Assembly: GCA_038064575.1 (NCBI GenBank)
Contig: JBBTST010000003.1
Span: 6,751-70,750, forward strand
Origin: Patescibacteria group bacterium
GTDB taxonomy: Bacteria > Patescibacteriota > WWE3 > UBA101185 > 2-01-FULL-41-18
Length of the DNA: 64,000 nt
Reading direction: 5' to 3'
A program made the translations under genes and the position numbers. Shown in pieces: positions 40,951-61,911 of this stretch. The notes under the pieces were generated by a model. It had not been told where the DNA came from. It did not search any database and worked only from the letters and a program-made list of their open reading frames with translations. How positions within the stretch are numbered: position 1 is the first letter of the stretch; every line of letters starts with the position of its first letter.

Positions 40951-40998
40951 GACCCTTTATAGCCTAATGAAAACACATGTAGTATTATTCATAGCAGT

Positions 40999-41331: not shown

Positions 41332-41333
41332 AT

Positions 41334-41768: not shown

Positions 41769-44700
41769 CAAAAGTAGTCTTTGCAATACCAATAATTCTA
41801 GTCTTGACTTTTACTTCCGGTAAAAGCGCTTCTGCTGCGGTAGAAAAGTGGGGACCTAATCTCAAAGACTCTCCATCAATGATAGCTCCAGCAAGACAGG
41901 CATACTTGGGTTTGGGCGGGGATACAAATAACTGGGTTCCTTTTGAGATTATGATGTCCGCAGCAGGAATACCGGGAGATGTGGCGGGCACAAAACAGGC
42001 TATGCAGGAAATGTTGGACATTGCAAGAACCAATAAAATGATGCCTGTAGTCAGACTCACAACCAGACTCTGTTCAGGCGGGGTAAGTGGCTGGGAAAAA
42101 TTAACATTGGATTATGCAAGATATACTGCCCAAGCATTTAATTCTGTTGACGCTTCAGGATTTCCAGACACAATTCGCCTAGAGTGGGGAAACGAGGTAA
42201 ACCTTGGCAGGGAATGGGGAAACGAGATGCCAGACCCCGGCGAATATAGTAGCACCTACACATCATTCAAGGCACAACTTACAAACCCCAATATAAGCAC
42301 AATGCCTTCCTCAATAAATACATCCAACCCTGATGTCTTACCTCCTCAAGCTCCGGCAATGGATGCCATTAAATTTTATCAGGGTTTGTCAGGCACCACG
42401 GGTTCGGGACTTGCCTCACACCCTTATGAGACTGATGTGCCGGGTCCTGCTAGATACAGAATAACAGCTTGGGATTTTGATAATGACTATGCCAAAACAA
42501 CATCTCCTATAATTGTGAACGGTGGGGGTTTGTCACCTAATTTTGTGTATGGAGGCAGCAGGGTCAACTTTAATCAGCGCATTGACTACCTTAAAGCTTC
42601 TTTTCAAGGTAGTTCTTATTTGGGTGTACCCCCCTTAACCGGTGGTCCAGATGCAAAGTACCTCATGCCTGATCTTCAGGACGACCCAACGGCAGGTGGG
42701 GGAACCGATCAATTCCTTGTTATGGTGTATGGACCGGGGGGAACAACAACTCTTCCACTTGCAGGAGGAGGCTCCAGAGGAGGGGGTACATGCGAAGATA
42801 TTGAGGACACTAACACAGAGGTGCTTCCGGCGTGTACTCCAGAAGACCTTGAAATTGAGCCTGAAGAATTTACTCCAGCTACACTTAGGGGAACTGTAAC
42901 AAATTCTTATACAAACAATTTTGGAAAAAGAATAATTCCAAGTATGGCTACACCCCCACTAACAGGGGCTAAAATTGCTTGGGTAGAAACTTTTGCCAGA
43001 CCGGCCCCACCTCTTAAAAACCAATCCATCTGGGATGATCTTAACAAACCTGATGAGAATGAAGAAAAAAAGAAAAATGCTACATATAACTCAACAACCA
43101 TTCAAAATGTCAATGGCAAGTATCAATATGAACTTCAAATACCCAAAGACAAAACCTCCTACCTTATGGTTATCTGCGGAAACAAAGTGCTAGATGTATT
43201 TTCTGTTAACCCAAATGGAAACAGCAACGTTAAACTTGATTTAAGTTACGCTAAATTTATTGAGGGTTGCGGAGGAAGCAACGAGTGTTTAAGACTTAAA
43301 CCTGTAGGGGATGTGACAAAAGCGGGCTATTGTCCTTTTATATCAGGCACAGCTCCGGTAGCAGATGAGATGGTACCTGATAAAATAGTTCAAATCTCTC
43401 AGCAACTGGGAAAGTTTTCTCTAAGCTGCGTTAAAAACCTTTTGAGTTGTGTCAAAGTTGTCTGGGACACTACTTGGACTACACTAGGTGGTTTTGCAGG
43501 CTCACAAAAGCAAGATCAGGTCAAAGGTATAGCAAGAGATCATGCTTCTGACAAACAGGCTATAAGACAATCTTGGGGAGAAATTCCGTATGTAGATAAA
43601 GTAAGTTGTGAAGCTATAAAAGCCAACAATGAAAGGATGAGTCTAATTAGAAACATGCCTATAGGAGCAAATTTACTTGGCATGAGACCTGGTCTTTTGA
43701 CAGAAATTTGTATAAAAGCCAGAGAAAGGCAGGGGGCACTAATTGCTTGTCAAGGGACACCCCTATCAGGGATTTGCGCTCCGGGAGAGGTAGGTTGCAC
43801 AATGAAAGATTCAAAATACTTCCCGCTTTACATGTGCGCTTATGGCCTTGATGCCCCGGGGGTAATTTACAATGTGGCAGACTCCCCATTTGGAGCAATA
43901 AACTCCCCAGAGGGCGTTAGAGAACCAATAGTAGTTAATAACAACACGGGTAGCGTGAATCTGGAAAGCGATTACACTCCACACATCTGCGGTGGTCCGT
44001 ATCTGGACGAAGCTGATATAGGATGTTACGTAGGAGATCCCATCACAGAAAATAGAGACGATTGTCAAGGAGCCGCGTGCGACACACAGCCTACCGTTTA
44101 TGTTAGCGGACCAAACGGCGGAAACGCAGGCCCCGGCCCTGCCACATCCGTTGCAACCGTAGCAAGCATGTACACAAGACCCGGTGTGATTGGAGCAAAT
44201 GAGGCCGGAAAGATGATGAATATAGAGGATGCAGACCCAACACCTACCGCTGCACTTGATAGAACTATTTTTTCAGACAATCCTGTAAGAACATCCGCAT
44301 ATAGTGCTGTGATAAGGAGGTTAAAAATTCTGGGCAATGAGTGTCCATGTGATGGAGAACAGCTTAAGGTAAATAAGAAGTATGATGATGGTTTTGTTTG
44401 CACAAAGGGAGGATTAAGATTTAATATGATTATTGATTTTGGCGAGCTTATAGATGCTTTCTTAGCTAACTTATTGAAAGCTTTCAATGACTGTGCCCTG
44501 TTACCCACCCCAGAAGAAGTACAGGCTTGCCAAGATGCGGAGACAGAATATGAAGCATCGGCTGATTTGACTCCAACTTTTAAAGTGCCTTATGCGGCCC
44601 ATAAGGGAGCGCCTGCAGCAACAATTGCAGATGTAGTAAAAATGCCATATCACAAGCCTGTTCAAAAAATCGGTACTCTTGGTACGGTCAATACAGAGCT

Positions 44701-44848
44701 TGAAAGAAACAGAATCCCATGGACTGCCGCTTCCGGAGTTTCAGGGGAGGCTTTAAGAACCGGCGAGTTTGTGAGAAATATGTTTTGTATACCAAGAGAG
44801 GGAGTAAGTTGCGGGGTGGGAGGTCCGGGTATTGAAGAAACCCCCTAA
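41753..44848 (+). CDS. large secreted protein (1031 aa), possible N-terminal glycosidase-like domain
   Basis: Signal peptide (SASAA/VE). Translationally coupled to the upstream pilin gene by a 16-nt overlap. G/P/T-rich. LEWGNEVNLG resembles the GH-A NE(P) motif. Confidence 0.45.
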   Translation: MVKSITKVVFAIPIILVLTFTSGKSASAAVEKWGPNLKDSPSMIAPARQAYLGLGGDTNNWVPFEIMMSAAGIPGDVAGTKQAMQEMLDIARTNKMMPVVRLTTRLCSGGVSGWEKLTLDYARYTAQAFNSVDASGFPDTIRLEWGNEVNLGREWGNEMPDPGEYSSTYTSFKAQLTNPNISTMPSSINTSNPDVLPPQAPAMDAIKFYQGLSGTTGSGLASHPYETDVPGPARYRITAWDFDNDYAKTTSPIIVNGGGLSPNFVYGGSRVNFNQRIDYLKASFQGSSYLGVPPLTGGPDAKYLMPDLQDDPTAGGGTDQFLVMVYGPGGTTTLPLAGGGSRGGGTCEDIEDTNTEVLPACTPEDLEIEPEEFTPATLRGTVTNSYTNNFGKRIIPSMATPPLTGAKIAWVETFARPAPPLKNQSIWDDLNKPDENEEKKKNATYNSTTIQNVNGKYQYELQIPKDKTSYLMVICGNKVLDVFSVNPNGNSNVKLDLSYAKFIEGCGGSNECLRLKPVGDVTKAGYCPFISGTAPVADEMVPDKIVQISQQLGKFSLSCVKNLLSCVKVVWDTTWTTLGGFAGSQKQDQVKGIARDHASDKQAIRQSWGEIPYVDKVSCEAIKANNERMSLIRNMPIGANLLGMRPGLLTEICIKARERQGALIACQGTPLSGICAPGEVGCTMKDSKYFPLYMCAYGLDAPGVIYNVADSPFGAINSPEGVREPIVVNNNTGSVNLESDYTPHICGGPYLDEADIGCYVGDPITENRDDCQGAACDTQPTVYVSGPNGGNAGPGPATSVATVASMYTRPGVIGANEAGKMMNIEDADPTPTAALDRTIFSDNPVRTSAYSAVIRRLKILGNECPCDGEQLKVNKKYDDGFVCTKGGLRFNMIIDFGELIDAFLANLLKAFNDCALLPTPEEVQACQDAETEYEASADLTPTFKVPYAAHKGAPAATIADVVKMPYHKPVQKIGTLGTVNTELERNRIPWTAASGVSGEALRTGEFVRNMFCIPREGVSCGVGGPGIEETP

Positions 44849-44849
44849 G

Positions 44850-45800
44850 CTAATATTCTGAATAATAAATTTCTAAGACTTTGTTTCCAAAACCCTTGAT
44901 GCTAGCTTTTTTTGCAACATACGGAATAAGAACCCCATCTTTAGAATTCATAACATAAATCTTTGAAAAACCCGTCTCATCAAAGGCAACGTAACTTTTT
45001 GGAATACCTCCAAGATTAAAAAAAAGATCAAAGTAGTAAGGATCTAAAGGCGCGGAAGGTCTTAAGATATATGTTCCTTCTGAAAAAGCCCTGATGGTAT
45101 GAACAGAAATATAGGAAGGAAGAAAATTGGGGATAGTAACTATTGAAGCCCCACCTGATATTGGTGACCAAACTTGTATATTATTCATTCTGCTTATATT
45201 TGATACCGGATAACCCCCTAAAGAAATAAAGTATACAAACTCTTTGTGTGTTGGAGGAGAACAGTTCCCTTCAAATTCTTGCGCCACACAAATACCTTTT
45301 TCAGAAACTGGAATGGCTTGGAATTTCAAATTGTTTAGTATAGGCTCCTTTACCAATTTTGAATTCAAGAATGCTACATAACGAGTCACAAAAGCTGAGG
45401 GTGTGAGATTTGTGGTAAACCTACTCTCATAATCTCCACTGTTTTGTATTTCAACAATTCCTAAGTCTTTCTCAAGAAAAGGTAAAGAAGAAGACTCAAA
45501 AGTAAGAATGAAATTATCCTTGGAAAGCTTAGAAGCTTCCACTTCCCCAAGTACAAAAGTAAGCTCAGAACCTGTCTCATCAAAGCCGTCTATTCTGGTC
45601 CCTTTATATTTATCTATTGTAGCCTCAACAAAATTTTGCTGCTGAGTTAGTCTTTCCTGTGTGGGTTCATAGACTTCTTTGTATCGAGTCTGCTCTTGAT
45701 ACTGTGTAAAGAAAATGAAAGTTAGAACACAAAAGACCAATATGACACCAAGAATAATTAAAACCGTTTTATTTTTTAAAAATTGTGGCAACGCAGGCAT
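44850..45800 (-). CDS. bitopic membrane protein (316 aa), possible VirB8-like
   Basis: Single N-terminal TM and extracytoplasmic domain. Downstream of the M23 gene in the same operon. Confidence 0.35.
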   Translation of the reverse strand: MPALPQFLKNKTVLIILGVILVFCVLTFIFFTQYQEQTRYKEVYEPTQERLTQQQNFVEATIDKYKGTRIDGFDETGSELTFVLGEVEASKLSKDNFILTFESSSLPFLEKDLGIVEIQNSGDYESRFTTNLTPSAFVTRYVAFLNSKLVKEPILNNLKFQAIPVSEKGICVAQEFEGNCSPPTHKEFVYFISLGGYPVSNISRMNNIQVWSPISGGASIVTIPNFLPSYISVHTIRAFSEGTYILRPSAPLDPYYFDLFFNLGGIPKSYVAFDETGFSKIYVMNSKDGVLIPYVAKKASIKGFGNKVLEIYYSEY

Positions 45801-45817: not shown

Positions 45818-48655
45818 TCATAAATTTAGCGTAGTCGGGCAAGAACCACCGGTGTTAATGGCAGGGCAAGCGAAAGAAGTGGCACAGGGGTTAACCTGCT
45901 TTGTTCTATCATTACTTCCAGATCTAATCTCAAAGTGCAAATGCGGTCCGGAAGAATAACCCGTAGAATCCACCTGGCCCAAAGTAGTACCTTTAGTAAC
46001 AACACTACCAACAGGAACGCTAAAACTCTTAAGATGTGCAAAGTACATATAATAGGGTAGGGCTGTTCCACCTGATTGAGCCTGTATTACTATTAACTGT
46101 CCAAAATTCCCAGCAGAACTTGCAAATACAACCTTTGCATCTCCATCATAAGGGGAGAGTACAAATGCACCAGTGGGAGCTGCAAGATCTATACCACCAT
46201 GTTTCACACAAACGCCCCCCACAGTCCTATCTTCCCCAAAACAAGACCAAGTCTGTCCGCTACCTCCAGGAAACACTGTTCCGTTGGTCTTTGAAAAGGG
46301 TACAGGCTGATTGGTACCTGAGGTTGTAGCACTGCAGGCAATTGCTTCCCCTCCCGGAGCAGTACCTGGACCTAAGACAGGTGTAGAAGTACCTCCCAAA
46401 CACTGAGGGGTCTGGCTAAACCAACTTTCTGTTCCCCAAATACCCACCAAAAGCCAAGGATTAACATTTTTGGCTTTGGCAACCTGTAAAACCTGAAGTA
46501 ATTTACCGGGAGGTGGGGAGAAACCCGAATAACTTACATTTAGTATGTTCGTCATGTAATCAGCAAGCTCTTCAGGAGTTTTCCCAAAGGAATTGTCAGT
46601 TGTCCATTTAAGCTGAGCGTTAGGCACTTCACAATCTCTCAATGCCTCTCTATAGTAAGCAAATATCCCATTTACGGCAGGGTCGGGTACGGCGCAGGTG
46701 CCCCCATTAAAGCATCGGGGAGATGTACCTGTGCACCTGTAGCCTGCATCCAAAGGTCTTGCGGTTTCGGGCGGCGGGGTAGCACAGGACCTCCCGGCAG
46801 GAGTCCCTATAGCAACATATTTATCATAAAATTTCACAAAAAGGTTGTACGCAAAAGGCAAGTTCCTGGTTTCATTGTCACAATAAGGACCGTACTCATC
46901 AACTAACCTCCAAAGAGGTCCGCTTGTATCGCTAGACAAAGTTGCTGCAGCACAATTAAGAGACGATTCAAAATCCGTAACTCCGGAACCAAAGCAGTTA
47001 AAATCATTACAGCTTGGAGTTGGAAGTTCTGTGCCACCACCAACACCTCCCGCAGTTTCACCATAAGGCTGTGTGCCTCCAAGAGGGGCCAACACAGTGT
47101 TAACAATAAAATACAAAGCCAGTATTAAAACTACAACCGTGAAACCTGTAATTCCAGCCACAAACTTAAAGATATTTGCCATCTCTTTGCCAAGCTCATC
47201 AAGAGCCTTACCAAGATCAAGCTTCATTGTGTGCCAAATTATGTTCCAAGCTTTTTCCCCAACATAAATCAAGGCAGCTGTTATAGCAGCAGGAAGAGTT
47301 CCAACACCACTAGCACCTGCAGCGGTTAAAGCTGAACTTACAAGAGACCTGATAGCAATTTTAATTGCACCACCGCTAACAAGGTTGATAAGCCCAGAAG
47401 CTTTACCACTTAACACTTGTGCAAGAGCTCCCAAGGTTCCATCCAGACCCTTGGCTACCTTGTCCATTAACGTCTGAAGCATTTTATTAATAGGAGAATT
47501 TTTGTTTCCAATTAAAATTCTTAAGCCCCCCCTAACAGGGTCCTGAACAAAACTTGCAAACTTAAAAGCAGGAGTCAAAAACTTAATCTTTGTTTTAATT
47601 TTGCTCCACATATAGAGCTGGAAAAACTTTCCTTCAGCAACAGCGTCCAGAAGTTCGTTGTATTCAAAAACTTTCTTTCTGTAATCTAACATTTGTGCAA
47701 AAGCCACAAGACGATTATCTCCAAGAGTGTCTCCAAGATCCTTTGATCCCATTGCTCTCTTCCAAATGGAGTCTATATCTTCGTTTCCCCTAGATTCTAT
47801 TGAACTTCTTACCTTTTCCATCTCCCCTGCAGAAAGCTTGTTTCCATCCGCATCAGTGTCCTTAACAAAAATCTTCTCCCCATCAACAGATTTGTAAGCA
47901 CCTGTTGAAAAAACTCTATCTAAATCTCGTTTTAAGGCTGTGACTTCAGGGGAAGCAGTACGAGGGTCATAAGTTTCATCGAGTTGCCTTTTAAGGGCAA
48001 GAGCAAATCTGGTTTGAACTACGTTAAATTTAACACCCCTTTTATCTGCCGAATTTCCAAAAACAACAAAATCTCTAACAGAAGCTGCAAATCTATCTGA
48101 GGATTCAAAAGCACCTTGAGTCGTGACCCCATATAAATCTTTAAAAACTGATGAGTGAAGACTCAAGGCCTTCTGCTCTTTAGTTGCAGTTATCAGAGGA
48201 TTTAACATTGGGTCCCAAATACCTTTTAATTCGGCTTGGGCAGTTAAATCCTTAAAACCCATGACCGCTGTGAACCAATCCTGGGCGGTCTCAGCAACAA
48301 ATTCTTCTAAGCTTTTCTTCTTGAGCTTCTCTGGATCAAGATTCAAACCAATACCAGCAGCCCCTGGAAGCTCTGCGTATTCCTCTTCTACACTACCTAA
48401 TTCTCCGCTAGCTACTCTAGCACCGGCGTCTCTAATCTTACCTCTGATCACAAAAGAAGAAGCAACAAAATCTTTCTCAATTAGCTTTGTAAGAGTGCCA
48501 GGAAGACCCAGTGCAACAGAGTCAAAGGAAACTACAGATGCAAGTTCTCTTTGAAATTCATCAGATTCATATCTTTTGGGCCTACCCCCTCTTTTTTTCT
48601 TTTTAACAGGGCGGCTGCCTGGATAATACCCAGGATAAAAAATTGGCGCTGCCAT
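45818..48655 (-). CDS. membrane-spanning peptidoglycan hydrolase with C-terminal M23 peptidase domain
   Basis: C-terminal M23/LytM motifs HxxxD-like and GPHLHFEIR. Central TM (FVAGITGFTVVVLILALYFIV). Segment WLLVGIWGTESWF is reminiscent of lysozyme/transglycosylase active sites. About 500-aa cytoplasmic N-domain. Confidence 0.7.
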   Translation of the reverse strand: MAAPIFYPGYYPGSRPVKKKKRGGRPKRYESDEFQRELASVVSFDSVALGLPGTLTKLIEKDFVASSFVIRGKIRDAGARVASGELGSVEEEYAELPGAAGIGLNLDPEKLKKKSLEEFVAETAQDWFTAVMGFKDLTAQAELKGIWDPMLNPLITATKEQKALSLHSSVFKDLYGVTTQGAFESSDRFAASVRDFVVFGNSADKRGVKFNVVQTRFALALKRQLDETYDPRTASPEVTALKRDLDRVFSTGAYKSVDGEKIFVKDTDADGNKLSAGEMEKVRSSIESRGNEDIDSIWKRAMGSKDLGDTLGDNRLVAFAQMLDYRKKVFEYNELLDAVAEGKFFQLYMWSKIKTKIKFLTPAFKFASFVQDPVRGGLRILIGNKNSPINKMLQTLMDKVAKGLDGTLGALAQVLSGKASGLINLVSGGAIKIAIRSLVSSALTAAGASGVGTLPAAITAALIYVGEKAWNIIWHTMKLDLGKALDELGKEMANIFKFVAGITGFTVVVLILALYFIVNTVLAPLGGTQPYGETAGGVGGGTELPTPSCNDFNCFGSGVTDFESSLNCAAATLSSDTSGPLWRLVDEYGPYCDNETRNLPFAYNLFVKFYDKYVAIGTPAGRSCATPPPETARPLDAGYRCTGTSPRCFNGGTCAVPDPAVNGIFAYYREALRDCEVPNAQLKWTTDNSFGKTPEELADYMTNILNVSYSGFSPPPGKLLQVLQVAKAKNVNPWLLVGIWGTESWFSQTPQCLGGTSTPVLGPGTAPGGEAIACSATTSGTNQPVPFSKTNGTVFPGGSGQTWSCFGEDRTVGGVCVKHGGIDLAAPTGAFVLSPYDGDAKVVFASSAGNFGQLIVIQAQSGGTALPYYMYFAHLKSFSVPVGSVVTKGTTLGQVDSTGYSSGPHLHFEIRSGSNDRTKQVNPCATSFACPAINTGGSCPTTLNL

Positions 48656-48763: not shown

Positions 48764-50050
48764 ATGAATAAAAAAACAAGCTCAAATCAAACAGTTCTTC
48801 GTGCTATAAGTGTTATTTCTGCTCTGGTTCTTGTTTTTTCAACTCAAGTCAGAACCTCATACGCTGGTGGTAATTGGGTCTGGGATCAAGCAGTGGGTTT
48901 TGTGTTGGGAGATAAAAACGATTTGCAGACACTCGTTACCGGAACAGCCATCGGTGGCATTGCCGGGGCTGGTTATATATTAGTAACGGGGTGTACTTAT
49001 GACCAAATGATTGATAAAGCAAAAGGAGTAGCCTCAGAGTGTGATCCTACTCTTCAAATTGTAAACAGTAAATCAAGCATGTTAGCTTTTGCCGTAGGTG
49101 CTATGGACTCGGCAATTGAGGCACCTCCTGTAATGAATCTTGCATACTATTTTAATAGTATGAAGTCCGATTCGGTGTTATTTAGGCAAGCTTACGCTGC
49201 ACCTTCCCCAGCATTTCAGGCTGTTATTGATATGTGGAAAGCCATGAGGAATCTAGCTTATGGTCTTCTTGCCGCTTTTGTTTTAGTAGTAGCGTTTATG
49301 ATAACCATGCGTTCTAAAATAGATCCTCAAACGGTTGTAACTGCACAGTCTGCAATTCCCAGAATTGTGATAAGTGCCGTTCTAATAACAATATCTTATG
49401 CACTAGGTTCCTTGTTTGATCAGATGATAGGTAGGGGGTGGAATAGCCCCTTAGTTGGAGTTGCGTCCTGGTTAGCAGGTCCTGGGGGTGTTACAGGACA
49501 GGGAATAATTTATGTGATACAAGGGGTGTGGCCTCCTATATGCAGCAGTTACCAAGCAGGTAATCTGACTGGGGCAATGCAGTGTCTTCTGGCAATATTA
49601 GGAAACGTAAGTAATGCCGCTGTATCCGGTGGTCTCGGTCTTTTCATTCTGTTAGAAATAATATTGGCACTTGTTCTTCTGGTAATAATGCTTATTGTCT
49701 TCTTAACAAGTTATGTCAAAGTCATTGCAAGGACAATTATCTCCCCAATGATATTTGCTGTCGCGGCGATTCCAGGACAAGAACACAGAATAAAAGATTG
49801 GTTCAAAGACATGCTTGCGGACACGTTAGCCCTACCCGTAATAGTGTTTCTCATGGCTTTTGGACTGGTAATCTTTTTCAAGACGGCAGCCGCAGCTGCA
49901 GCAGATCCAAACACAAATGTGGCAGCAGGCTTTTTAAGCGATACTTTAGCTGTTGTTGCAGCACACATGATTCTTATGGCAACGTGGGTAATGGCTATAA
50001 AGGCCCCGGGATTGGTTAGAGCTGCAATTCAAGGACCAAAGACTAGATAA
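48764..50050 (+). CDS. VirB6/TrbL-like polytopic membrane protein
   Basis: Signal peptide, roughly 150-aa extracytoplasmic domain, then at least 5 TM helices and an Ala-rich tail. Position and architecture fit VirB6. Confidence 0.45.
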   Translation: MNKKTSSNQTVLRAISVISALVLVFSTQVRTSYAGGNWVWDQAVGFVLGDKNDLQTLVTGTAIGGIAGAGYILVTGCTYDQMIDKAKGVASECDPTLQIVNSKSSMLAFAVGAMDSAIEAPPVMNLAYYFNSMKSDSVLFRQAYAAPSPAFQAVIDMWKAMRNLAYGLLAAFVLVVAFMITMRSKIDPQTVVTAQSAIPRIVISAVLITISYALGSLFDQMIGRGWNSPLVGVASWLAGPGGVTGQGIIYVIQGVWPPICSSYQAGNLTGAMQCLLAILGNVSNAAVSGGLGLFILLEIILALVLLVIMLIVFLTSYVKVIARTIISPMIFAVAAIPGQEHRIKDWFKDMLADTLALPVIVFLMAFGLVIFFKTAAAAAADPNTNVAAGFLSDTLAVVAAHMILMATWVMAIKAPGLVRAAIQGPKTR

Positions 50051-50145: not shown

Positions 50146-50526
50146 TCAAGGTCTGAGGAAAAGCAGGGCAACAAGCCAAAAGAAACGCCAGGATATAAAC
50201 CAGTAAACTATCCAAGCGTTGTAGATCAGGGTGTTCCCTGGTTCCCCCCACGGCCAAATCAGCCAGGAAAAATCATGGCTGAAGTGACCCAGGGCTCCGA
50301 CCAAACCAAGAATTATGGCTAGCCAGAGTCCCCGAGAGGACTTGTTGAGGGGCCTTTTATAAAAAAGCCGACGGAGGAGAGCTCCCCAAATCCCTTGGAG
50401 GATTGGGGAAAAAAGTACATATAACATCAGGTGGCCCTCACTTTCCACCCGATAACGAAGCAGGTACTCTGCTCCGGCCGCAAAGCTCAAATTCATTGCG
50501 GCAAAAACAATCCATTTTTTCACCAT
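50146..50526 (-). CDS. small membrane protein (126 aa), GC-rich
   Basis: Trp/Leu-rich hydrophobic protein on the opposite strand inside the T4SS-like locus. Confidence 0.3.
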   Translation of the reverse strand: MVKKWIVFAAMNLSFAAGAEYLLRYRVESEGHLMLYVLFSPILQGIWGALLRRLFYKRPLNKSSRGLWLAIILGLVGALGHFSHDFSWLIWPWGEPGNTLIYNAWIVYWFISWRFFWLVALLFLRP

Positions 50527-50655: not shown

Positions 50656-53328
50656 ATGCCCTTAAAAGAAACTAGCGGACTATCTAATAAACAACACGCA
50701 GTACCACAAAACATAATGCAGGTGGAGTTCAAGATAATAGGGGACTTGACCATGCGCCAGTTCTTTTACCTGCTTATTGCAGCTATTTTTGCCTTTGGAG
50801 CTATCAAAAGTGGGCTTCCTTCCTATGTTGCCTGGCCCCTTGGCATTGTGGCAGCCCTTGCCGGCGTAGCCATAGCTTTTGTCCCTATTCAAGATAGAGG
50901 AATGGATCAATGGGTAGCTTTTTTCTTCCAGGCAATTTACCAACCAACCCTGAGGGTCTGGAGAAAAGAAACACTTATCCCACAATATTTTCTATATCAA
51001 AGCGCGGCATTGCTTAAATCTGAAATGTTAACAATAGCCCCAACGGCAAGCAGAAGAAAACTGGAGGAGTATCTTGAAAGAGCTTCTGGCGATCTTAAGA
51101 AAAAAGATTATCTTGATGAAAAAGAAGAGGAGTATATCAAAAAAGTAAGGGCTGCTTTTGAACCCTCTTTAGCTAATGCTAGACCCACTACACCTCAAAC
51201 CATACTTAACACTCAAGCAACAGCCGTTACGGCACCACCCCAAGTAACAACTCAATTCAGACCACAAAGTTTACCTCAGACACACCCAAGCGTTAGAAGC
51301 ATCCCTATTACGCCCACTATAGCACCCTCACCTAAAATACCTATATACCAGGCACCTAAGTTCACACCACCTTCACCACAACCCTCTATCCCACAGGCTC
51401 CCAAACCTCAAGAGGTTAATAAAGCTTCAGGGGCTCAGGAGAAAGTAGCACAACAGCCTCAGCAGCAGAGCGTGCCTCAAGCTAGTCAAAAACCACCCTC
51501 ACCAAAAGTGCAAACCCCTGAAGTCTTAAAGCTTCCGGATGTTAAAAAGGAGGAAGTAAAAATAATAACTCCAAAAACTTTAGACGCTTTAACCGTTTCA
51601 ACCCCCCCGCAAACTTTTGTTAAACCCCCTGTTCAGATGCAAACGCAGCAGCAACCACAACCTAAACAAGTTGTGGCCAAACCATTCGAACCCCCACAAG
51701 TTATAGAACCAAAAGTAATAGAAGTAGCAAAAGAAGTTGGGAGGGAAGAAGCTCCTATCTTTGTGGATATAACTCCCAAGAGTGAGGAAAAACCGGAAGT
51801 GGTGGAAAACATAATTGAGCAGGATAAGGCAAACCTTGTCAGGACAGAACTCGCACCCGGTAAAGAATCCACACCCAAAGAGCCCCCAGCACCAGCGCTA
51901 GCACCCGCACCCGCACCGTTCACGTCTGGCCCACTAACTCAAGAAAAAGCGTCTCTAACACAGTCTGAAACCGTTGCAATCCCAGCTAAAGAACCAATTC
52001 AGGAACCAAAAGTTCAGGAACAAAAAAAAGAGGAGCCCCATGAACAGGAGCAGGAACAGGAACAAGAAAGAGCGGAAATAATCAAGCCTTCAAGATCCCA
52101 GCTGAGGCAAAACTTTCCAATTACAGCAAGAATTGGTTCTTTTAAACCAAAGTCTCAGGGCACCACCTTAACCCCTGCCGGCATTACAGGCAGAAGATTT
52201 ACAAACCTGACTCCAACCCAGGGTGAGATTGTTTTACCAATCAGAGGAGAAAGAATTTTAAGAATGTCAGGCGAGCCCGAACCTCCTAAAAGCCAGGAAG
52301 ACATGAAAAGAAAGGAAAAATTAGACCAACTCAACGCTTTGGTTGAAAAACTGAAAGTAGATCAAAAAAGCAGTGCTTCCCAGGCAAGACTTTCAATACC
52401 CCCGCTTAATATATCTGCTCTGACACAGCAAGATCAAAAGAAAGAAGAAAAAATAGAGGTTGGGAACCCGTTTAAAGAAGTGGCTGTTACAGAAGTAGAA
52501 AAGAAAACTGCAGAGGGAGTAGGAGTACCTGCTCAACAAACCCCCCCGCAAACCTCTCAAACACCAAAAAAAGGCAGCATGTACCTGCCGCCGGAAAGAC
52601 TTATGTGGACAGGTCCGGAACCAACAGCTTCTCTCAAAAAAGAGGTTCCAAAAGATGAAAAAGTTGAAATAAAATATGATATCCCCGGCAAAAAAGCAAC
52701 AGATGAAGAAATAGAAAAGCACCTGATTGAAGCAGATTCCAAACTAACTAAGGAGATTGAAGCGCTAAACATGAGCATGAAAGATTCGTCAAAAACGGAG
52801 GCTGAAAGAAAAGCCATCCAGGATCAAATAAAACGTGTAGAAACGGAAAGAGTTGAAGCGCAAAAAGTGATAACAGGCCTTGAAACCAAAGTTAAAGAGC
52901 TTGAACAAAAACTCACAGAAACCACCTCTCCACAAGTTGTTGTTCAAAAAGTGGTGGAAAAAGTACAAGTACCTGTAATTCATGACAGCAAAGAAGATAC
53001 GCAACTCAAACAGCCTAAGGCTCCAGTGCTAGCCAAAGTTCCTACAATAACAACTCTGCCTAATTCAATAAACGGGGTTGTAAAAGACAACAACGGCAAA
53101 CTTGTGGAAGGCGCAGTAGTTATGATTAAAGATCCAAGAGGAGACGTTGTCAGAGCGCTAAGAACCAACAAACTGGGCCAATTCTTCATCACAACTGCAG
53201 TAGCAAACGGTAGTTACATAGTTGAGGTTTCATTTGAGAAAGATAATATTGCCTTAAACTTTGATTCTTCCCTGATACAAACCAAAGGAGAGGTATTACC
53301 TCCAATTGAATTTACTGGTAAGATTTGA
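50656..53328 (+). CDS. VirB3/PrgI-like two-TM N-domain fused to Pro/Gln-rich linker, coiled-coil and C-terminal CarboxypepD_reg-like domain
   Basis: N-terminal 110 aa with two TM helices (MRQFFYLLIAAIFAFGAI…VAWPLGIVAALAGVAIAF). Roughly 400-aa P/Q/A-rich low-complexity region. C-terminal beta-sandwich motif (GVVKDNNGKLVEGAVVMIKDPRGD…). Confidence 0.45.
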   Translation: MPLKETSGLSNKQHAVPQNIMQVEFKIIGDLTMRQFFYLLIAAIFAFGAIKSGLPSYVAWPLGIVAALAGVAIAFVPIQDRGMDQWVAFFFQAIYQPTLRVWRKETLIPQYFLYQSAALLKSEMLTIAPTASRRKLEEYLERASGDLKKKDYLDEKEEEYIKKVRAAFEPSLANARPTTPQTILNTQATAVTAPPQVTTQFRPQSLPQTHPSVRSIPITPTIAPSPKIPIYQAPKFTPPSPQPSIPQAPKPQEVNKASGAQEKVAQQPQQQSVPQASQKPPSPKVQTPEVLKLPDVKKEEVKIITPKTLDALTVSTPPQTFVKPPVQMQTQQQPQPKQVVAKPFEPPQVIEPKVIEVAKEVGREEAPIFVDITPKSEEKPEVVENIIEQDKANLVRTELAPGKESTPKEPPAPALAPAPAPFTSGPLTQEKASLTQSETVAIPAKEPIQEPKVQEQKKEEPHEQEQEQEQERAEIIKPSRSQLRQNFPITARIGSFKPKSQGTTLTPAGITGRRFTNLTPTQGEIVLPIRGERILRMSGEPEPPKSQEDMKRKEKLDQLNALVEKLKVDQKSSASQARLSIPPLNISALTQQDQKKEEKIEVGNPFKEVAVTEVEKKTAEGVGVPAQQTPPQTSQTPKKGSMYLPPERLMWTGPEPTASLKKEVPKDEKVEIKYDIPGKKATDEEIEKHLIEADSKLTKEIEALNMSMKDSSKTEAERKAIQDQIKRVETERVEAQKVITGLETKVKELEQKLTETTSPQVVVQKVVEKVQVPVIHDSKEDTQLKQPKAPVLAKVPTITTLPNSINGVVKDNNGKLVEGAVVMIKDPRGDVVRALRTNKLGQFFITTAVANGSYIVEVSFEKDNIALNFDSSLIQTKGEVLPPIEFTGKI

Positions 53329-56217: not shown

Positions 56218-57351
56218 TTAATACTGCAAAGGCATTATCAGATAAGTATGGTTATCCCTGCCAACAGGCTTTAAAACTCCGGGCATTCCGGGACCTATTT
56301 TATCAGAGCAGGAAAACACAAAACCATCCGCTTTAATGTTTGACAGGGCATCAAGTATATATTTTGAATTAAAAGCAACTTCAATATCTCCACCGTCAAT
56401 TTTTGCATCAACACTACTCCTGTTTTCCCCAGCCTCAGTGCTTGAAGAGGATATATACAAAACCCCATCTTCTCCGCTTACTTTAAATTTGACCACACTT
56501 GTTGCATTTTCTTTGGCAAAAACATTTGCAAGTCTTAAGCCATTGGTAAAATCCTTAGTTAACATCTCTACTCTAATATTTGTTAGGGCAGGATCCGGAA
56601 TGAGTTTTTTGTATTCGGGAAAAGCCCCATCCAAAAGTCTTGAGGAAATCAGCAGATCTGAAGATTTAAAAACAGCAAGATTTCCGTCTTTATTTAAGGA
56701 GATTTCTAAAGGCTCCTTGAGAGAGCTAACCAACCTGGCAACTTCCAGTATGATTTTTGCAGGTATGATAGCAGAAAAGTTTTCTTTCACCGTTTCGTTT
56801 TCTGCAAGCTCAACAACCCTCTCCGCTAGTCTAAACCCATCAACTCCTACCATAAAAAGCTTGCCCCCTTCTGAATAAACAAGGATACCTGTAAGAACGG
56901 GTCTTCCCTCATCCATGGCTGCAGCAAAAGCAACCTCAGACACCACCTCACTAAAAATCTTGGGATCCATAGTCAAATGCACCTCATCCGGAGTATCCGG
57001 AAGGGAAGGAAATTCAGAGGCATCAAGCCCATTAAATTTGGAAGAGGCTTTGTCACACATAATTTTCAAAGAAAAATCATCAGATTCACCACTTACTGTC
57101 TGTGGGGGAAGATTAGAAATAAACTCTGAAAGCAGTCTTGCCGGTATCGTAACACTTCCTTCTTCTTCAACAGAAGCACCAATCCAAGTAGTAATAGAAG
57201 TTTCAAGATTGGTAGCTGAAAGCTTAAGTCTGCCGCCCTCTGTTGAAAGTAATACGTTAGATAAAACGGGCATGGGACCTTTATTGGAAACAGCTTTAGA
57301 AACTGTTGTCAGGGCACGGGACAAGTTTTCTTGAAGACAGGTAAATTTCAT
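56218..57351 (-). CDS. dnaN: DNA polymerase III beta sliding clamp
   Basis: 377 aa, canonical N-terminus (MKFTCLQENLSRAL…PVLSNVLL) and three-domain length. Confidence 0.9.
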   Translation of the reverse strand: MKFTCLQENLSRALTTVSKAVSNKGPMPVLSNVLLSTEGGRLKLSATNLETSITTWIGASVEEEGSVTIPARLLSEFISNLPPQTVSGESDDFSLKIMCDKASSKFNGLDASEFPSLPDTPDEVHLTMDPKIFSEVVSEVAFAAAMDEGRPVLTGILVYSEGGKLFMVGVDGFRLAERVVELAENETVKENFSAIIPAKIILEVARLVSSLKEPLEISLNKDGNLAVFKSSDLLISSRLLDGAFPEYKKLIPDPALTNIRVEMLTKDFTNGLRLANVFAKENATSVVKFKVSGEDGVLYISSSSTEAGENRSSVDAKIDGGDIEVAFNSKYILDALSNIKADGFVFSCSDKIGPGMPGVLKPVGRDNHTYLIMPLQY

Positions 57352-57386
57352 GTTTTCTAAAAGGATTAACTACCAATCCTTTAACT

Positions 57387-57848
57387 TTATTCTTTAGGTT
57401 TTATTACAACTCTTCTACTAAAACCATCTCCAATACTATCTGACGCAATTCCCTCATATTTGGAGGCTTCCAAATGAACAATACGCCTTTCATAAGAAAC
57501 CATTGGGGAAAGTTCTACAGGCTTTAAGGTAAATTTGACTCTATCAACAGCCTTTTTAACTATGTCTTTAATCTTTTCTTCTCTTTCCCTCTTGTAACCG
57601 TTGACATCAACAGAAAGATGCACCCATTTATCAGCTTTTTTGAGAATCATTAAACCAAGAATTGTCTGGAGAGAAGAAAGACCTTCTCCATGATACCCAA
57701 TCACAACCCCAAGGTCATCGCCGGAAAGGGAAACATGAAAACTATCCTCCTCAGTAATATTTTTAAAAACATCTACGGCAGCAACAACTCCAATAAAATA
57801 AAGAATTTTTTCTATCGTTTCTACAATTAATTTTTCTAAATCTGACAT
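57387..57848 (-). CDS. jag: Jag/KhpB-like RNA-binding protein (KH + R3H)
   Basis: R3H-like segment ERRIVHLEA and KH-like GVVIGYHGEGL. Conserved position downstream of yidC. Confidence 0.65.
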   Translation of the reverse strand: MSDLEKLIVETIEKILYFIGVVAAVDVFKNITEEDSFHVSLSGDDLGVVIGYHGEGLSSLQTILGLMILKKADKWVHLSVDVNGYKREREEKIKDIVKKAVDRVKFTLKPVELSPMVSYERRIVHLEASKYEGIASDSIGDGFSRRVVIKPKE

Positions 57849-57849
57849 A

Positions 57850-58638
57850 TCAAACTTTCAAGCCAATTTTTCTTGCAAGAGGTGCAAGACCACCAAGCCC
57901 ACTCACATAATATTGCTGAACTATAGAAAACAGAGTCGTTACTAAAATGTTTAAAACCACTCCGGAGGGCAGATTCAACCCCACAATCAAAAAGACTATA
58001 GGCATGGTATAAAGCATTTGCTCCTGCATATTATACATAACATCATCTGTTGAGTCACTGGTCTTTTTAGCTATTTCTTCTTCTTTTTTTACGTCAGGCA
58101 TCATCATTTTAGAGGTTAAAAATTGAAACAAGGCAGCCAATACCGGAAGAATAAAAAGCGGGTCTTTCTTTGCCAAATCCAAATACAAAAAATTTGAGTT
58201 TATTTTGTGGTTTTCTGGAATTCTCAAAAAATCAGAGTAAAGTCGTGGGTTTAAATCGCCAGAAGAAATGGCGTGTGTTCCAGTTGTAAGATTTATTACT
58301 GAGAAAAGCGCAAAGATTACAAGAATAGGAAAGATTTGGGTCAAACAGCCGGAAGCCGGATTAATCCCAAGAGTCTTGTAAAGCGCCATTTGTTTTTCAG
58401 CAAGCACTTTTTTATCATGTCCATACTTCTTTTTAAGCTTATCAAGCTCAGGCATTATTTCTTTTTGTTTCTGTGCAAGTTTTAAAGAGGAGTGCATGAA
58501 AGGGGCTGATAAGCCCTTAACCAAGAGGGAAAGCGCAATAATAGCCACTCCCAAATTTCCACCAAGCACTCTATAAAAAAAGAGCAAAATATTAAGAAGT
58601 GGCGTTACAAGCACCAAATTCCAAATTGTTGAAATCAT
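57850..58638 (-). CDS. yidC: membrane protein insertase YidC (short form)
   Basis: 262 aa, 5-TM YidC/Oxa1 core. Adjacent to yidD/rnpA. Confidence 0.85.
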   Translation of the reverse strand: MISTIWNLVLVTPLLNILLFFYRVLGGNLGVAIIALSLLVKGLSAPFMHSSLKLAQKQKEIMPELDKLKKKYGHDKKVLAEKQMALYKTLGINPASGCLTQIFPILVIFALFSVINLTTGTHAISSGDLNPRLYSDFLRIPENHKINSNFLYLDLAKKDPLFILPVLAALFQFLTSKMMMPDVKKEEEIAKKTSDSTDDVMYNMQEQMLYTMPIVFLIVGLNLPSGVVLNILVTTLFSIVQQYYVSGLGGLAPLARKIGLKV

Positions 58639-58641
58639 AAA

Positions 58642-58884
58642 TTATAGGAGAGGGCCTGCTGCGTGTTTTGAGAGGGGATTACAGCAAGCAACCCTTTTAG
58701 CTCCTTTCAGTAACCCTGCTAAGATACCATACTTTTCTACCGCCTGATAGGTATACTCAGAACAAGTAGGAACGTGTCTACAAACCCTGAAAGTAAACTG
58801 AGGCAAAAGAAGTCTCACCAGTCCTGTATCAAAGGAAAGATATTTCTGATAAAACTTTATTAATTTGAGAACTAATTTCTTCAT
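58642..58884 (-). CDS. yidD: membrane protein insertion efficiency factor YidD
   Basis: Motif CRHVPTCSEY matches the YidD signature CRFxPTCSxY. Overlaps the rnpA 3' end. Confidence 0.8.
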   Translation of the reverse strand: MKKLVLKLIKFYQKYLSFDTGLVRLLLPQFTFRVCRHVPTCSEYTYQAVEKYGILAGLLKGAKRVACCNPLSKHAAGPLL

Positions 58885-59176
58885 ATGTAGCAGTTAACCC
58901 TTTAAATCGGATGATAAAAATATAATAATAACCTGCCTTAAAACCACCCAAAAGCTTATAAACTATATCAGAAAAGACTCTTTTTAGCTTATGTCTAACT
59001 ACAGCTCTTTTGTCAATCTTGTTTGACACAATGAAACCTATTTTTGGTTTTGCGGAAGGATTCTTAATATTCCTCATCACAGACAGCACAAAAAAGGGTG
59101 TGGAACAGCTCTTCCCATACTTTTTGGCTTTCTCGTAATAATATTTATCTGTTAACCGATTATCCGGCGGAAGCAT
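58829..59176 (-). CDS. rnpA: ribonuclease P protein component
   Basis: 115 aa basic protein with RNR-like motif (KRAVVRHKLKR). Located between rpmH and yidD. Confidence 0.75.
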   Translation of the reverse strand: MLPPDNRLTDKYYYEKAKKYGKSCSTPFFVLSVMRNIKNPSAKPKIGFIVSNKIDKRAVVRHKLKRVFSDIVYKLLGGFKAGYYYIFIIRFKGLTATYEEISSQINKVLSEISFL

Positions 59177-59185
59177 GTAATAAGC

Positions 59186-59338
59186 TTACTTTGATTTTTT
59201 TGCAACCACAACTCTAACTCTTCCTTTTTGTTTTCTTCTTTTAATTATGTTTCTACCGCCCGGGGTTGAATTTCTGGCCATGAACCCATGTTTTCTGATT
59301 CTTTTTCTCTTTTTAGGCTGATATGTTCTTTTTGGCAT
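59186..59338 (-). CDS. rpmH: 50S ribosomal protein L34
   Basis: Hand-translated: [50 protein letters not shown]. 50 aa. Not in the ORF track. Confidence 0.85.
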
Positions 59339-59513
59339 AACCAGGCTATATTAAACGATCCTCCTACCCCAGTCAATGCGTTGCTGCGCTAGACAGATAC
59401 CCTATAGTGTGATATGATGCACCAATCCTTAGAAACAAGTGTAAAAAGTGTTTTAGACCTGCAAACACACGTTAATCAGGCTTTATTTTTAGCTAACCTA
59501 AAGAAGGACTAAG

Positions 59514-60434
59514 ATGGATAAACTAAAAATTGGTGTTTTAACAGTAATACTGGCTCTTGTATTAACCCCGTTAAAGGCGTGGGCATGGAAGGCTAGTGGG
59601 TCTGCCAAATCTTCCTGCGTTTTGGAAAAAGCCGTTATCAAAGTGTCCTTCTCAAACACAGAATTAAACGGGGAACAAAATGTAATGAATGTGATAGCTA
59701 AAGACTTAGCTTCAACCAAGACCGTTGCTCTTGGCAGCATAGCTCCCGGACAAACAAAAAATGGAGAAATAAAGCTTGATACTTCTAGCACTTCTGCAAA
59801 TTCTGTTCTTTTTGAGCTTTCCTGGATAAACGGCAGAGAAGGAAAAGATAAACGCTTTGCAAACTACTCTTCTGTTGACTGTAAAGCTACTGAAGAGCCC
59901 AATGAGGAACCCAAAGAACCTAAAGAAGAGAAATCAAAAAATGAGAAAGCAGAGCTTAAAGTCAAAAAGATGGTAAAGCTTGACGGTACTAAAGACTATA
60001 AAGAAAACCTCTCAAATGTTTCAGTTGGAGACACGCTTGTTTTTAAGATAGATGTTAAAAATACAGGAGAAAAAGATGTAGTTGATATTGAAGTATTTGA
60101 TGAACTACCTATTGAATTCAAAGTTCTTGACGGAGAGCTTATAAAAGAGCTTGAAAGACTGCCTGACAATCAAAAGTTCAGCTATACCATAAGAGTAAAA
60201 GTAAAAGAGACGGGAAAAGTTTTAAGTAACGATTGCGTAGAAAACAAAGTAAAAGCAAAGGCGGATATTAATGGAAACGGTAGCAGAGAAAAGCTGTCTT
60301 CAGACACAGTCAAAGTGTGTTTTTCCGGAAGTCTTAAGAGGCTTCCAAAAACAGGAACTGAAAGTTTACTTATAGGAAGCCTCATAGGCCTAAGCCTCCT
60401 TACACTGGGCAAACTGCTACAAACAAGGCTTTAA
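59514..60434 (+). CDS. LPXTG cell-wall-anchored surface protein with DUF11-like repeat domain
   Basis: Signal peptide. C-terminal LPKTG, then a hydrophobic stretch and a basic tail (QTRL). Confidence 0.7.
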   Translation: MDKLKIGVLTVILALVLTPLKAWAWKASGSAKSSCVLEKAVIKVSFSNTELNGEQNVMNVIAKDLASTKTVALGSIAPGQTKNGEIKLDTSSTSANSVLFELSWINGREGKDKRFANYSSVDCKATEEPNEEPKEPKEEKSKNEKAELKVKKMVKLDGTKDYKENLSNVSVGDTLVFKIDVKNTGEKDVVDIEVFDELPIEFKVLDGELIKELERLPDNQKFSYTIRVKVKETGKVLSNDCVENKVKAKADINGNGSREKLSSDTVKVCFSGSLKRLPKTGTESLLIGSLIGLSLLTLGKLLQTRL

Positions 60435-60489
60435 CACACATCCCCAAAACTCCTAAAGAGTCACACAAAAGCTTTACTTTAAAAAACCA

Positions 60490-60508
60490 TTGACATTATT
60501 GTGGATAA
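60490..60508 (+). promoter_or_regulatory. putative dnaA promoter (TTGACA -35) with overlapping perfect DnaA box
   Basis: TTGACA at 60490-60495. Perfect box TGTGGATAA (TTATCCACA reversed) at 60500-60508. TTAAAT lies 17 nt after the -35. Confidence 0.5.
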
Positions 60509-60555
60509 CTTTTTAAATTGTGTGAGATTTGCAAAACTTCTGCCCCACAGTAACT

Positions 60556-61911
60556 ATGAATAACCTCGATCTTTTTAAAGCTGCAATGGGAGAACTGGAA
60601 ACAACGCTGTCAGGAGCGGTGTTCAAAACTTTTTTTTCCACTCTTTCTTTTGGCAAGGCGGAAGGAAGAAAAATGGAGATAGTCGCTCCAAGCGACTACG
60701 TAGCAGACCAAATAAATAAACGCTTTCTAATATTTTTAAAAAACAGCATTGATAGACTTGGAAAGGAAAGCATTGACATAACTTTTAGAGTGGAAAAAAA
60801 AGAAGTTCAAACAATCACAGAAGGCTTGCCACTTTTCACAAGTGTGGAAAAAGTTAAACAGACGGATTCCACAAATAATACCCAGCTTTCTCAAAAATAC
60901 ACATTTGAAACGTTTATAGTAGGCCCTAGTAATAGGCTTGCGCATGCTATAGCAACAACTGTTGCTGAAAATCCGGGCAAAATGTACAATCCGTTTTTCT
61001 TATATGCTGGCGTGGGACTTGGAAAAACCCATCTAATCCAAGCAATAGGAAACAGAATTCTTAAAAACCAACCAAAAGCAAAAGTAGTCTATGCAACGGC
61101 CGAGTCGTTTATGAACGAACTTATTGAAACTATTCAGGAAGGCAGAAATAAAAATTACACCGCAAATAAATTTAGAGATAAGTTTAGAAAGGCTGATTTA
61201 CTTTTGATTGATGATATTCAATTCATTGCAGGCAGGGGAGAGGCAACCCAAGAGGAGTTTTTCCACACCTTCAATGCCCTTTATATGTCACAAAAACAGA
61301 TTGTTCTGACCTCAGACAGACCCCCAAAAGAATTAAATAAATTAGACGCAAGAATCACTTCAAGATTTGCAAGCGGTGTAGTTGCGGATATGCAAAACCC
61401 GGACAGTGAAACAAGAGCTGCAATACTAAGAGAAAAAAGAAATGTGCTCAAAGAAGAAATACCCAATGAAGTTGTAGATTTCATAGCAATAAACTTTGAG
61501 TCAAATATCAGAGAGCTTGAAGGCATGTTTTTACAAATAGTTACAGGGGCAAAAGCTGAAGGAGTACAAATAACCAAAGAATATGCAGCAAAGATCATAG
61601 GGCATGTTTTAAAAGAGCCTCCAAAAGTAAATATAAATGACATCCTAAAAACGGTATGCACTTACTACAATATCAAAATCACTGATTTAAAGGGCAAAAG
61701 CAGGGTGAAAGAATTTGTAGTTCCAAGGCAAATCTCAATGTACTTATTAAAGGATTTAACTCAAACACCCTTCATGGTTATTGGAGACATTTTAGGTGGA
61801 AGAGACCATACCACCATTATGCACGGCAATCAAAAGATAGAAAACAATCTTAAGGAAAACCCAAAAATAAAACAAGACGTTTTAAATATAAAAAGGGCAA
61901 TGAGACTTTAA
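60556..61911 (+). CDS. dnaA: chromosomal replication initiator DnaA
   Basis: AAA+ Walker A GVGLGKTHL, Walker B LLLIDDIQF, C-terminal DNA-binding domain. Start taken at MNNLDLFK, since the track start is upstream in-frame. Confidence 0.92.
   Translation: MNNLDLFKAAMGELETTLSGAVFKTFFSTLSFGKAEGRKMEIVAPSDYVADQINKRFLIFLKNSIDRLGKESIDITFRVEKKEVQTITEGLPLFTSVEKVKQTDSTNNTQLSQKYTFETFIVGPSNRLAHAIATTVAENPGKMYNPFFLYAGVGLGKTHLIQAIGNRILKNQPKAKVVYATAESFMNELIETIQEGRNKNYTANKFRDKFRKADLLLIDDIQFIAGRGEATQEEFFHTFNALYMSQKQIVLTSDRPPKELNKLDARITSRFASGVVADMQNPDSETRAAILREKRNVLKEEIPNEVVDFIAINFESNIRELEGMFLQIVTGAKAEGVQITKEYAAKIIGHVLKEPPKVNINDILKTVCTYYNIKITDLKGKSRVKEFVVPRQISMYLLKDLTQTPFMVIGDILGGRDHTTIMHGNQKIENNLKENPKIKQDVLNIKRAMRL

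Follow-up and report, generated by a model that had tools for sequence, protein, structure and literature searches.

A PrgI/VirB3-type subunit fused to a separable coiled-coil and β-sandwich module in a type IV secretion locus of candidate division WWE3

What is attached to an 890-aa protein of the PrgI family, and on which side of the membrane does the attachment lie? The protein is encoded in a 64,000-nucleotide stretch of contig JBBTST010000003.1 (the window), from a WWE3 member of the Patescibacteria, an ultra-small groundwater bacterium. Its open reading frame (ORF) lies on the forward strand, with the ATG at 50656 and the stop codon at 53326–53328, and it was deposited as 'MAG: PrgI family protein [Patescibacteria group bacterium]'. 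Canonical PrgI/VirB3 subunits of type IV secretion systems (T4SSs) have masses of 10–15 kDa (PMC12857230) and PrgI of the Enterococcus faecalis plasmid pCF10 has 117 aa, whereas about 720 of the 890 residues here are extra. We conclude, with a probability of roughly 0.55, that the protein is a VirB3/PrgI subunit of a chromosomal WWE3-type T4SS with a C-terminal module that works in the cytoplasm, tethered at the PrgI–TrsD–VirB4 complex.

Results

The N-terminal region matches the Pfam family PrgI (PF12666, aa 16–98) at 36.9 bits, which passes the curated cut-off of 27, and a profile of 33 N-domains aligned by hhalign in register with pCF10 PrgI (E 0.0016). Hydropathy analysis revealed only two hydrophobic segments in the entire protein, at ~aa 35–54 and 57–80, and the same was true of nearly all of 106 relatives. 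When we modeled the protein as a monomer with AlphaFold2, using a 106-sequence alignment, these segments formed a hairpin of two transmembrane (TM) helices (aa 33–51 and 56–74) with a predicted local distance difference test score (pLDDT) of about 96, and four more helices followed (aa 82–95, 114–127, 130–145, and 152–173). The likeness to pCF10 PrgI and to VirB3/TrwM thus comprises the family match, the N-terminal motif, the two-helix hairpin near the N terminus with a helix (aa 82–95) after it, and the position of the gene just upstream of virB4. Pfam, hydropathy, and the structural model all agree with the initial annotation, which was made from the letters of the sequence and had taken the N terminus for a two-TM subunit of the PrgI/VirB3 type. 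The protein departs from this family in lacking its small size and short tails; because only the first ~170 residues are family-like, we regard it as a PrgI-domain fusion and not as a typical member. A tblastn search with the N-domain against 72,556 plasmids gave no match; known conjugative plasmids therefore carry no close relative. Sequence searches of solved structures, with the N-domain and with the neighboring TrsD-like protein as queries, returned chance-level matches only (E>0.3).

At the other end of the protein, aa 804–860 match CarboxypepD_reg (PF13620) at 33.2 bits (curated cut-off, 32.3), and aa 800–890 are modeled as a β-sandwich (pLDDT about 96) with the seven-strand prealbumin-like fold that goes with this family. 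Ahead of the sandwich are two helices, aa 683–709 and 715–755, predicted with a pLDDT of about 90; in the best heptad register of the second, 82% of a/d positions are hydrophobic versus 32% overall, a periodicity far above chance. The coiled-coil-like region and the carboxypeptidase-regulatory-like domain of the initial annotation are therefore both borne out, but its Pro/Gln-rich spacer needs revision. The low complexity is real (aa 171–505 contain 17% Pro and 12% Gln), as are the PA repeat PAPALAPAPAPF at aa 411–422 (51886–51921) and the EQ repeat HEQEQEQEQE at aa 462–471 (52039–52068). The spacer is not a single element, however, and instead consists of two linkers, of ~300–335 and ~110 aa, around a conserved element. 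Correspondingly, AlphaFold2 predicts disorder over aa 175–546 and 573–680 with a helix (aa 548–573) between them.

Column conservation across the family resolved four conserved blocks separated by fast-evolving linkers of variable length. Block 1 (aa 11–170) contains the PrgI domain and the conserved helices, with the consensus KQELITLAPTSSRRKLEEYL ... DPLDI.E.EYI.KVR. Block 2 (aa 506–573) consists of a nearly invariant motif of ~35 aa and the helix behind it; the coiled coil and the sandwich make up blocks 3 and 4, respectively. The motif reads (I/L)TPxxxSGR(K/R)FTNLLPxxGE(I/L)(I/V)LPIRGE(R/K)VLxTSEE; within block 2, L527, P528, and L559 are invariant and G512, R513, F515, G523, R530, G531, E532, and K555 are at least 90% conserved. 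Residues 476–510 were misaligned in one of the alignments; the ungapped pairing of LTPAGITGRRF with ITPDRHSGRKF is correct, and the protein has no 29-aa insertion. In the family, linker 1 is between 63 and 489 residues long, with a median of 127, which makes the copy in the window (about 300–335) the third longest, and linker 2 ranges from 3 to 175 residues (109 here). The motif (aa 506–540) has no structure in the monomer model (pLDDT<50), as would be expected if it were a short linear motif that becomes ordered on binding a partner. We also looked for the motif elsewhere, as a docking signal shared with other proteins; in the proteins of the window and of about 90 loci it occurs once per locus, in this protein only. 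A conserved motif inside the "spacer" is new relative to the first reading of this sequence.

The fused architecture is the normal state in candidate division WWE3. A database search recovered 105 further clusters of 490–1142 aa (median 566), almost all with both Pfam domains, and their named members are WWE3 or Patescibacteria; precomputed Pfam annotations already show the combination of PrgI and sandwich. When one genome per species was scanned, 120 relatives emerged, including one in the complete genome CP006914.1 (RAAC2_WWE3_1), and the gene is a single uninterrupted ORF of 397–752 aa in 69 of the loci from species representatives. The copy in the window ranks among the longest members of the family.

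We next took advantage of natural split forms, found by searching with the C-terminal half, in which the coiled coil and sandwich are present and the PrgI domain is absent. The module is a separate gene at the same operon position in four to five loci or more; these are clean two-gene arrangements, in which the module gene has a ribosome-binding site of its own or overlaps prgI by ATGA. In L004/L005 (WWE3 assembly GCA_013335095.1), a 161-aa prgI ends with TAA and is followed by a 445-aa module whose ATG has AAGGAGG upstream. In L006/L090 (an 846-kb contig), AAGGAG precedes the TAA of a 227-aa prgI, this TAA is directly joined to the ATG of a 588-aa module, and the downstream order in L090 is trsD, virB4, recF, dnaN, dnaA. 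An ATGA overlap joins the two genes in both L087 (182-aa prgI, 296-aa module) and L089 (265-aa prgI, 446-aa module). The free modules of L087 and L089 begin MT(L)EIIKSR, which corresponds to EIIKPSR at aa 474–480 of the window protein, and carry the motif ~35 residues from their start; that of L087 does so without the long linker 1. In L006 (1332–1814) and L090 (7775–8257), the gene directly upstream of prgI in this split-gene lineage belongs to the bAvd/23S_rRNA_IVP family, whose members are four-helix bundles associated with diversity-generating retroelements.

An exhaustive HMMER search with aa 470–890 found 1363 representatives (527 at E<=1e-10), and the sandwich sits at the extreme C terminus in every one of them. 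Among 110 new representatives, 60 contain a PrgI domain and 50 do not; about half of the latter (about 25) look like full-length stand-alone proteins, with N termini conserved within subfamilies. No hydrophobic segment resembling a TM helix or signal peptide was seen in the PrgI-less stand-alone modules, with the exception of P0133 and P0166, multi-repeat proteins with N-terminal hydrophobic segments which are taken to be unrelated surface proteins. The initial annotation had named splitting of the ORF by frameshifts in related genomes as grounds for abandoning the fusion. Splits do occur in a minority of lineages, but as two-gene arrangements and not by frameshift decay, and they refine rather than refute the fusion. 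Three apparent splits were discarded. Runs of N lie within the linker in the species-representative assemblies of L038 (about 6860–6970) and L073 (about 2150–2260), where the low-complexity sequence is evidently hard to assemble, and the apparent splits there are artefacts; the apparent split in L054 is a frameshift beside a homopolymer run, possibly a sequencing error. In the window itself, a GAGGAG...ATG at 52031–52042 was rejected as an internal start for a free module, since it is out of frame and, by eye, opens only ~13 codons.

The fusion gene heads a tightly packed set, with 7 nt between it and the gene for a 233-aa TrsD-like protein and 17 nt between that gene and one for a 714-aa VirB4 ATPase. 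Essentially every locus we examined (about 80 loci) shows one order: prgI-module, trsD, virB4, and then, on the opposite strand, dnaN. The initial annotation expected a VirB3-type gene to precede virB4; it does lie upstream, but in a departure from the canonical order the TrsD-like gene is inserted between the two. The TrsD-like protein also has a precomputed PF26593 TraC-like annotation. VirB4 matches positions 177–737 of the 752-position CD1110 profile and lacks the first ~176, and TrsD covers VirB4 positions ~24–222, so the N-terminal region of VirB4 is encoded separately and TrsD looks like that region in detached form.

On which side of the membrane does the extension lie? An even number of TM helices places both termini on the same side, and the termini of VirB3 are cytoplasmic (PMC12857230 section 12; PMC9259494). 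Natural VirB3–VirB4 fusions (e.g., on Campylobacter plasmids; cited in PMC12102498 and PMC12624023) also place the VirB3 C terminus in the cytoplasm and show that a large cytoplasmic polypeptide can be joined to it. In the present protein, unlike in those fusions, the partner is an unrelated disordered, coiled-coil, and sandwich module, and VirB4 is divided into TrsD and an ATPase. The Lys plus Arg count is about 2.0 in one flank of the TM hairpin and 1.9 in the other, versus 1.1 in its loop, which is a positive-inside bias of modest size. Finally, the free module carries no export signal. From these four considerations (TM parity, VirB3 topology, charge bias, and a signal-less free module) we infer, fairly strongly, that the extension most likely lies in the cytoplasm. 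They speak against the proposal of the initial annotation that it reaches through the wall.

Several points weigh against a cytoplasmic module. The topology rests on homology, TM-helix parity, a modest positive-inside bias, and the absence of export signals, and the T4SS itself might in principle export a stand-alone module that has no signal. The function of the module is without homology-based support. Pro-rich linkers are typical of envelope-spanning proteins, and the closest structural neighbors of the sandwich are mostly pilin and adhesin domains of Gram-positive surface proteins (CnaB, SdrD-B). These features would suit an envelope-spanning arm, with the extension outside, the Pro-rich linkers crossing the wall or S-layer, and the sandwich at the surface; such an arm, which could get outside via an out/out hairpin or by threading through the channel, would be a VirB10/TonB-like or adhesin-like stand-in for VirB8/9/10. 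Even the shortest linker 1 (63 residues) could bridge an envelope, the module is C-terminal in every case, and T4SSs of the Candidate Phyla Radiation (CPR) have no recognizable VirB8 or VirB10 (PMC12102498). If the module were extracellular, it would be an unprecedented way to build the wall-spanning part of a monoderm T4SS.

An external arm would have to be reconciled with two TM helices whose termini share one side, the cytoplasmic one in VirB3, and with stand-alone modules (at least four to five loci, about 25 representatives) that carry neither a signal peptide nor a TM segment. By contrast, four other proteins of the locus, p1031, p428, pil1, and pil3, have N-terminal hydrophobic segments which, by eye, are as expected of signal peptides. 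What recalls VirB10 and TonB is the combination of a membrane anchor with an extended Pro-rich region and a β domain at the C terminus; those proteins, however, have one TM helix and an outside C terminus, and the window protein has two, with no relationship in sequence or fold and no VirB10 or TonB family match in Pfam or NCBIfam. Cytoplasmic enzymes share the sandwich fold, and among its structural neighbors cytoplasmic ones such as 4v4c_B and hydroxyisourate (HIU) hydrolases score equal to those from the surface, so that the fold by itself does not settle the question. Six threaded chains per machine would also be expected to block the channel. Nor are such linkers confined to the envelope: in FtsK-type proteins a long, poorly conserved, P/Q-rich tether connects a membrane domain to a cytoplasmic module, a case without homology to ours that shows only that P/Q-rich linkers occur inside cells too. 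On balance, we consider an envelope-spanning arm unlikely.

Another possibility is that the module is cargo of the T4SS, an effector or pilus-associated factor; split lineages would have it free, and fused ones would keep it at the entrance of the channel. It is largely disordered, has no Sec signal, and is encoded inside a T4SS operon, and CPR T4SSs are thought to export protein rather than DNA (PMC10633639). In most lineages, however, it is part of one polypeptide with an integral membrane subunit and could be released only by processing, for which no cleavage site is evident, and its strongly conserved motif and strict one-per-operon synteny resemble a machine component and not an effector, which makes a translocated module quite improbable. 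We give hardly any credence to the remaining alternative, an extension of the length-variable repeats suggested in the initial annotation, of a slippage-prone contingency region with protein length varying between strains: linker lengths of 63–489 residues between species and assembly gaps inside the linker in two species representatives would fit it, but Tandem Repeats Finder detects only two 6-bp repeats, (GCACCC)x2.8 and an imperfect (GAACAG)x4.5, all 8 contigs that carry the protein, from several runs of Hainich groundwater metagenomes, encode it without any difference, and the protein database holds no near-identical length variants, the next-best match being 67% identical over the N-domain only. 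A scan of the JGI metagenome collection for EQ-repeat length variants gave 0 matches and is uninformative, as that collection probably does not include this groundwater population. There is accordingly no sign of slippage-driven length variation within the population, though the linkers differ greatly between species.

The remaining genes of the locus fit a T4SS of the chromosomal, MPF-FATA-related Patescibacteria type, which is characterized by a CD1110-like VirB4, TrsD, PrgI, pilins, a VirB6-like protein, and an origin-proximal position, all of them present here. The 428-aa polytopic membrane protein (p428), which has an N-terminal hydrophobic segment and no family match in Pfam or NCBIfam, is a conserved upstream neighbor in several loci. 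The 945-aa protein with an M23 peptidase domain is a candidate cell-wall hydrolase in the role of VirB1, and VirB1 analogues with M23 domains have been noted in CPR (PMC12102498). The origin gene set (dnaN, khpB/jag, yidC, rnpA, and dnaA, at 56218–61911) adjoins the operon, which fits the origin-proximal placement reported for CPR T4SSs, and the chromosomal housekeeping genes of the rest of the window comprise mutS, mutL, metG, rpoD, dnaG, dnaN, yidC, rnpA, and dnaA. The ORFs of the window that we scanned include no relaxase and no type IV coupling protein (T4CP), and scans for promoters and terminators gave no excess over shuffled expectation.

Four other ORFs of the locus deserve mention. 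The first of the three pilin genes (40060–40950, forward strand) encodes a 296-aa protein with a signal peptide, a ~190-aa domain containing >30 Cys, and a C-terminal VirB2-like hairpin; such a large Cys-rich head is unusual for a pilin. A 1031-aa secreted protein (p1031; 41753–44848, forward strand) has no family match, and a 316-aa protein with an N-terminal TM anchor is encoded at 44850–45800 on the reverse strand; of these two and the 945-aa M23 protein, all encoded within the T4SS locus, two are uncharacterized. Between the VirB6-like gene and prgI lies an ORF for a Trp-rich small membrane protein of 126 aa (50146–50526, reverse strand), which has no family match and is gene-called in the source contigs.

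Table 1. Coordinates of the fusion protein, its parts, and the T4SS genes around it in the window.
Feature	Coordinates	Strand	Evidence
Whole ORF, PrgI/VirB3-like subunit plus accessory module	50656–53328	+	
PrgI domain, aa 16–98, including TM hairpin	50701–50949	+	PF12666, hydropathy, AlphaFold2, hhalign
TM1, aa 33–51	50752–50808	+	
TM2, aa 56–74	50821–50877	+	
Conserved helices after TM2, aa 82–173	50899–51174	+	Conservation, AlphaFold2
Linker 1, aa 174–473, disordered, Pro/Gln-rich, unconserved, with PA and EQ repeats	51175–52074	+	
Beginning of separable module, aa 474–505, EIIKPSR first	52075–52170	+	N termini of L087 and L089 modules
Nearly invariant short motif, aa 506–540, here TPAGITGRRFTNLTPTQGEIVLPIRGERILRMSGE	52171–52275	+	Conservation
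Conserved helix after motif, aa 548–573	52297–52374	+	Conservation, AlphaFold2
Linker 2, aa 574–682, disordered, length varies	52375–52701	+	AlphaFold2, alignment
Coiled-coil-like helical region, aa 683–755	52702–52920	+	AlphaFold2, heptad periodicity
Transthyretin/CarboxypepD_reg/CnaB-like β-sandwich, aa 800–890	53053–53325	+	
TrsD-like protein, 233 aa	53336–54037	+	NCBIfam NF041427, 7e-8; VirB4 profile positions about 24–222
VirB4 ATPase, 714 aa	54055–56199	+	Pfam P-loop_TraG, 3.5e-29; NCBIfam CD1110 family, 7.6e-116
Polytopic membrane protein p428, 428 aa, VirB6/PrgH position	48764–50050	+	Hydropathy
Three VirB2-like pilin genes	40060–41768	+	Weak T4SS_pilin/TrbC and NF045849 matches; two-TM hairpins
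Second and third of these, short VirB2-like pilins	40999–41331; 41334–41768	+	
945-aa protein, mid-protein TM, C-terminal M23 peptidase	45818–48655	−	PF01551, 3.1e-21

Discussion

The observations above establish the identity of the protein, its architecture, its conservation, its synteny, and the separability of its module. In the model that we favor, the first ~170 residues would act as a canonical unit, with a cytoplasmic N-terminal tail, a two-helix membrane hairpin, and cytoplasmic helices. VirB3 anchors VirB4 and wraps its N-terminal domain in R388 (PMC9259494), and by analogy the helices at aa 82–173 may clasp that domain, here the separate TrsD. Linker 1 would be a fast-evolving passive tether from this unit to a lineage-specific module, as its lack of conservation, its eightfold length range, and its dispensability when the module is free suggest. 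The module itself would comprise the ~35-aa linear motif and helix, the second linker, the coiled coil, and the terminal β-sandwich. The motif and helix may dock on a conserved partner, for which TrsD and VirB4 are the prime candidates because no other proteins of the operon are as well conserved or lie as near to the PrgI C terminus; this assignment of a partner, and of a role for the module, is a weak inference. Six VirB3 subunits are expected per machine by analogy with R388, and the coiled coil could oligomerize their arms, leaving the sandwich to bind another ligand, which may be a substrate or a partner in assembly.

A more specific version of this model would make the module a built-in cytoplasmic recruitment arm that replaces the missing T4CP or a VirB11 role. 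Six flexible tethers bearing coiled coil and sandwich would capture cargo or assembly partners, and the invariant motif would reel them onto the TrsD/VirB4 ATPase. We regard this version as speculative and doubtful; if true, it would define a new class of T4SS component and give a handle on the cargo transported by an essential CPR T4SS.

The T4SS context of the protein is already known. The locus is a Patescibacteria T4SS of the kind described by Quinonero-Coronel et al. 2025 (PMC12102498), which it matches in its pilins, VirB6-like protein, PrgI, TrsD, VirB4, and peptidase, in its chromosomal position beside dnaN/dnaA, and in the lack of a relaxase or T4CP among the window ORFs scanned. Among Saccharibacteria, Southlakia epibionticum needs its counterpart of this system (SEML1_0006-0019; Wang et al. 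2023, PMC10633639) to grow as an epibiont, and the PrgI of that counterpart, SEML1_0010, is essential, about 300 aa long, and precedes a 293-aa protein and VirB4 (PMC10633639 supplementary table). That PrgI differs from ours in having only a short helical C-terminal extension, and CPR members in general may extend PrgI at its C terminus, with add-ons that differ by class. New here are the motif and the natural split forms. Within the literature that could be searched, papers naming VirB3 or PrgI never bring up a carboxypeptidase-regulatory-like domain as well, and PMC12102498 and PMC10633639 mention neither this domain nor the conserved motif nor PrgI fusion or split variants.

In Southlakia epibionticum, the only member tested, epibiotic growth depends on the Patescibacteria T4SS, a machine that lacks the usual coupling protein and relaxase. 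The naturally fused and split variants provide a ready argument for where the module is located, and they define construct boundaries for predicting structures and for biochemical work. A conserved, operon-encoded module that is coupled physically or genetically to the VirB3–TrsD–VirB4 core, and that bears an invariant, putative docking motif, is a testable lead to how this machine is organized in WWE3, a large class of CPR.

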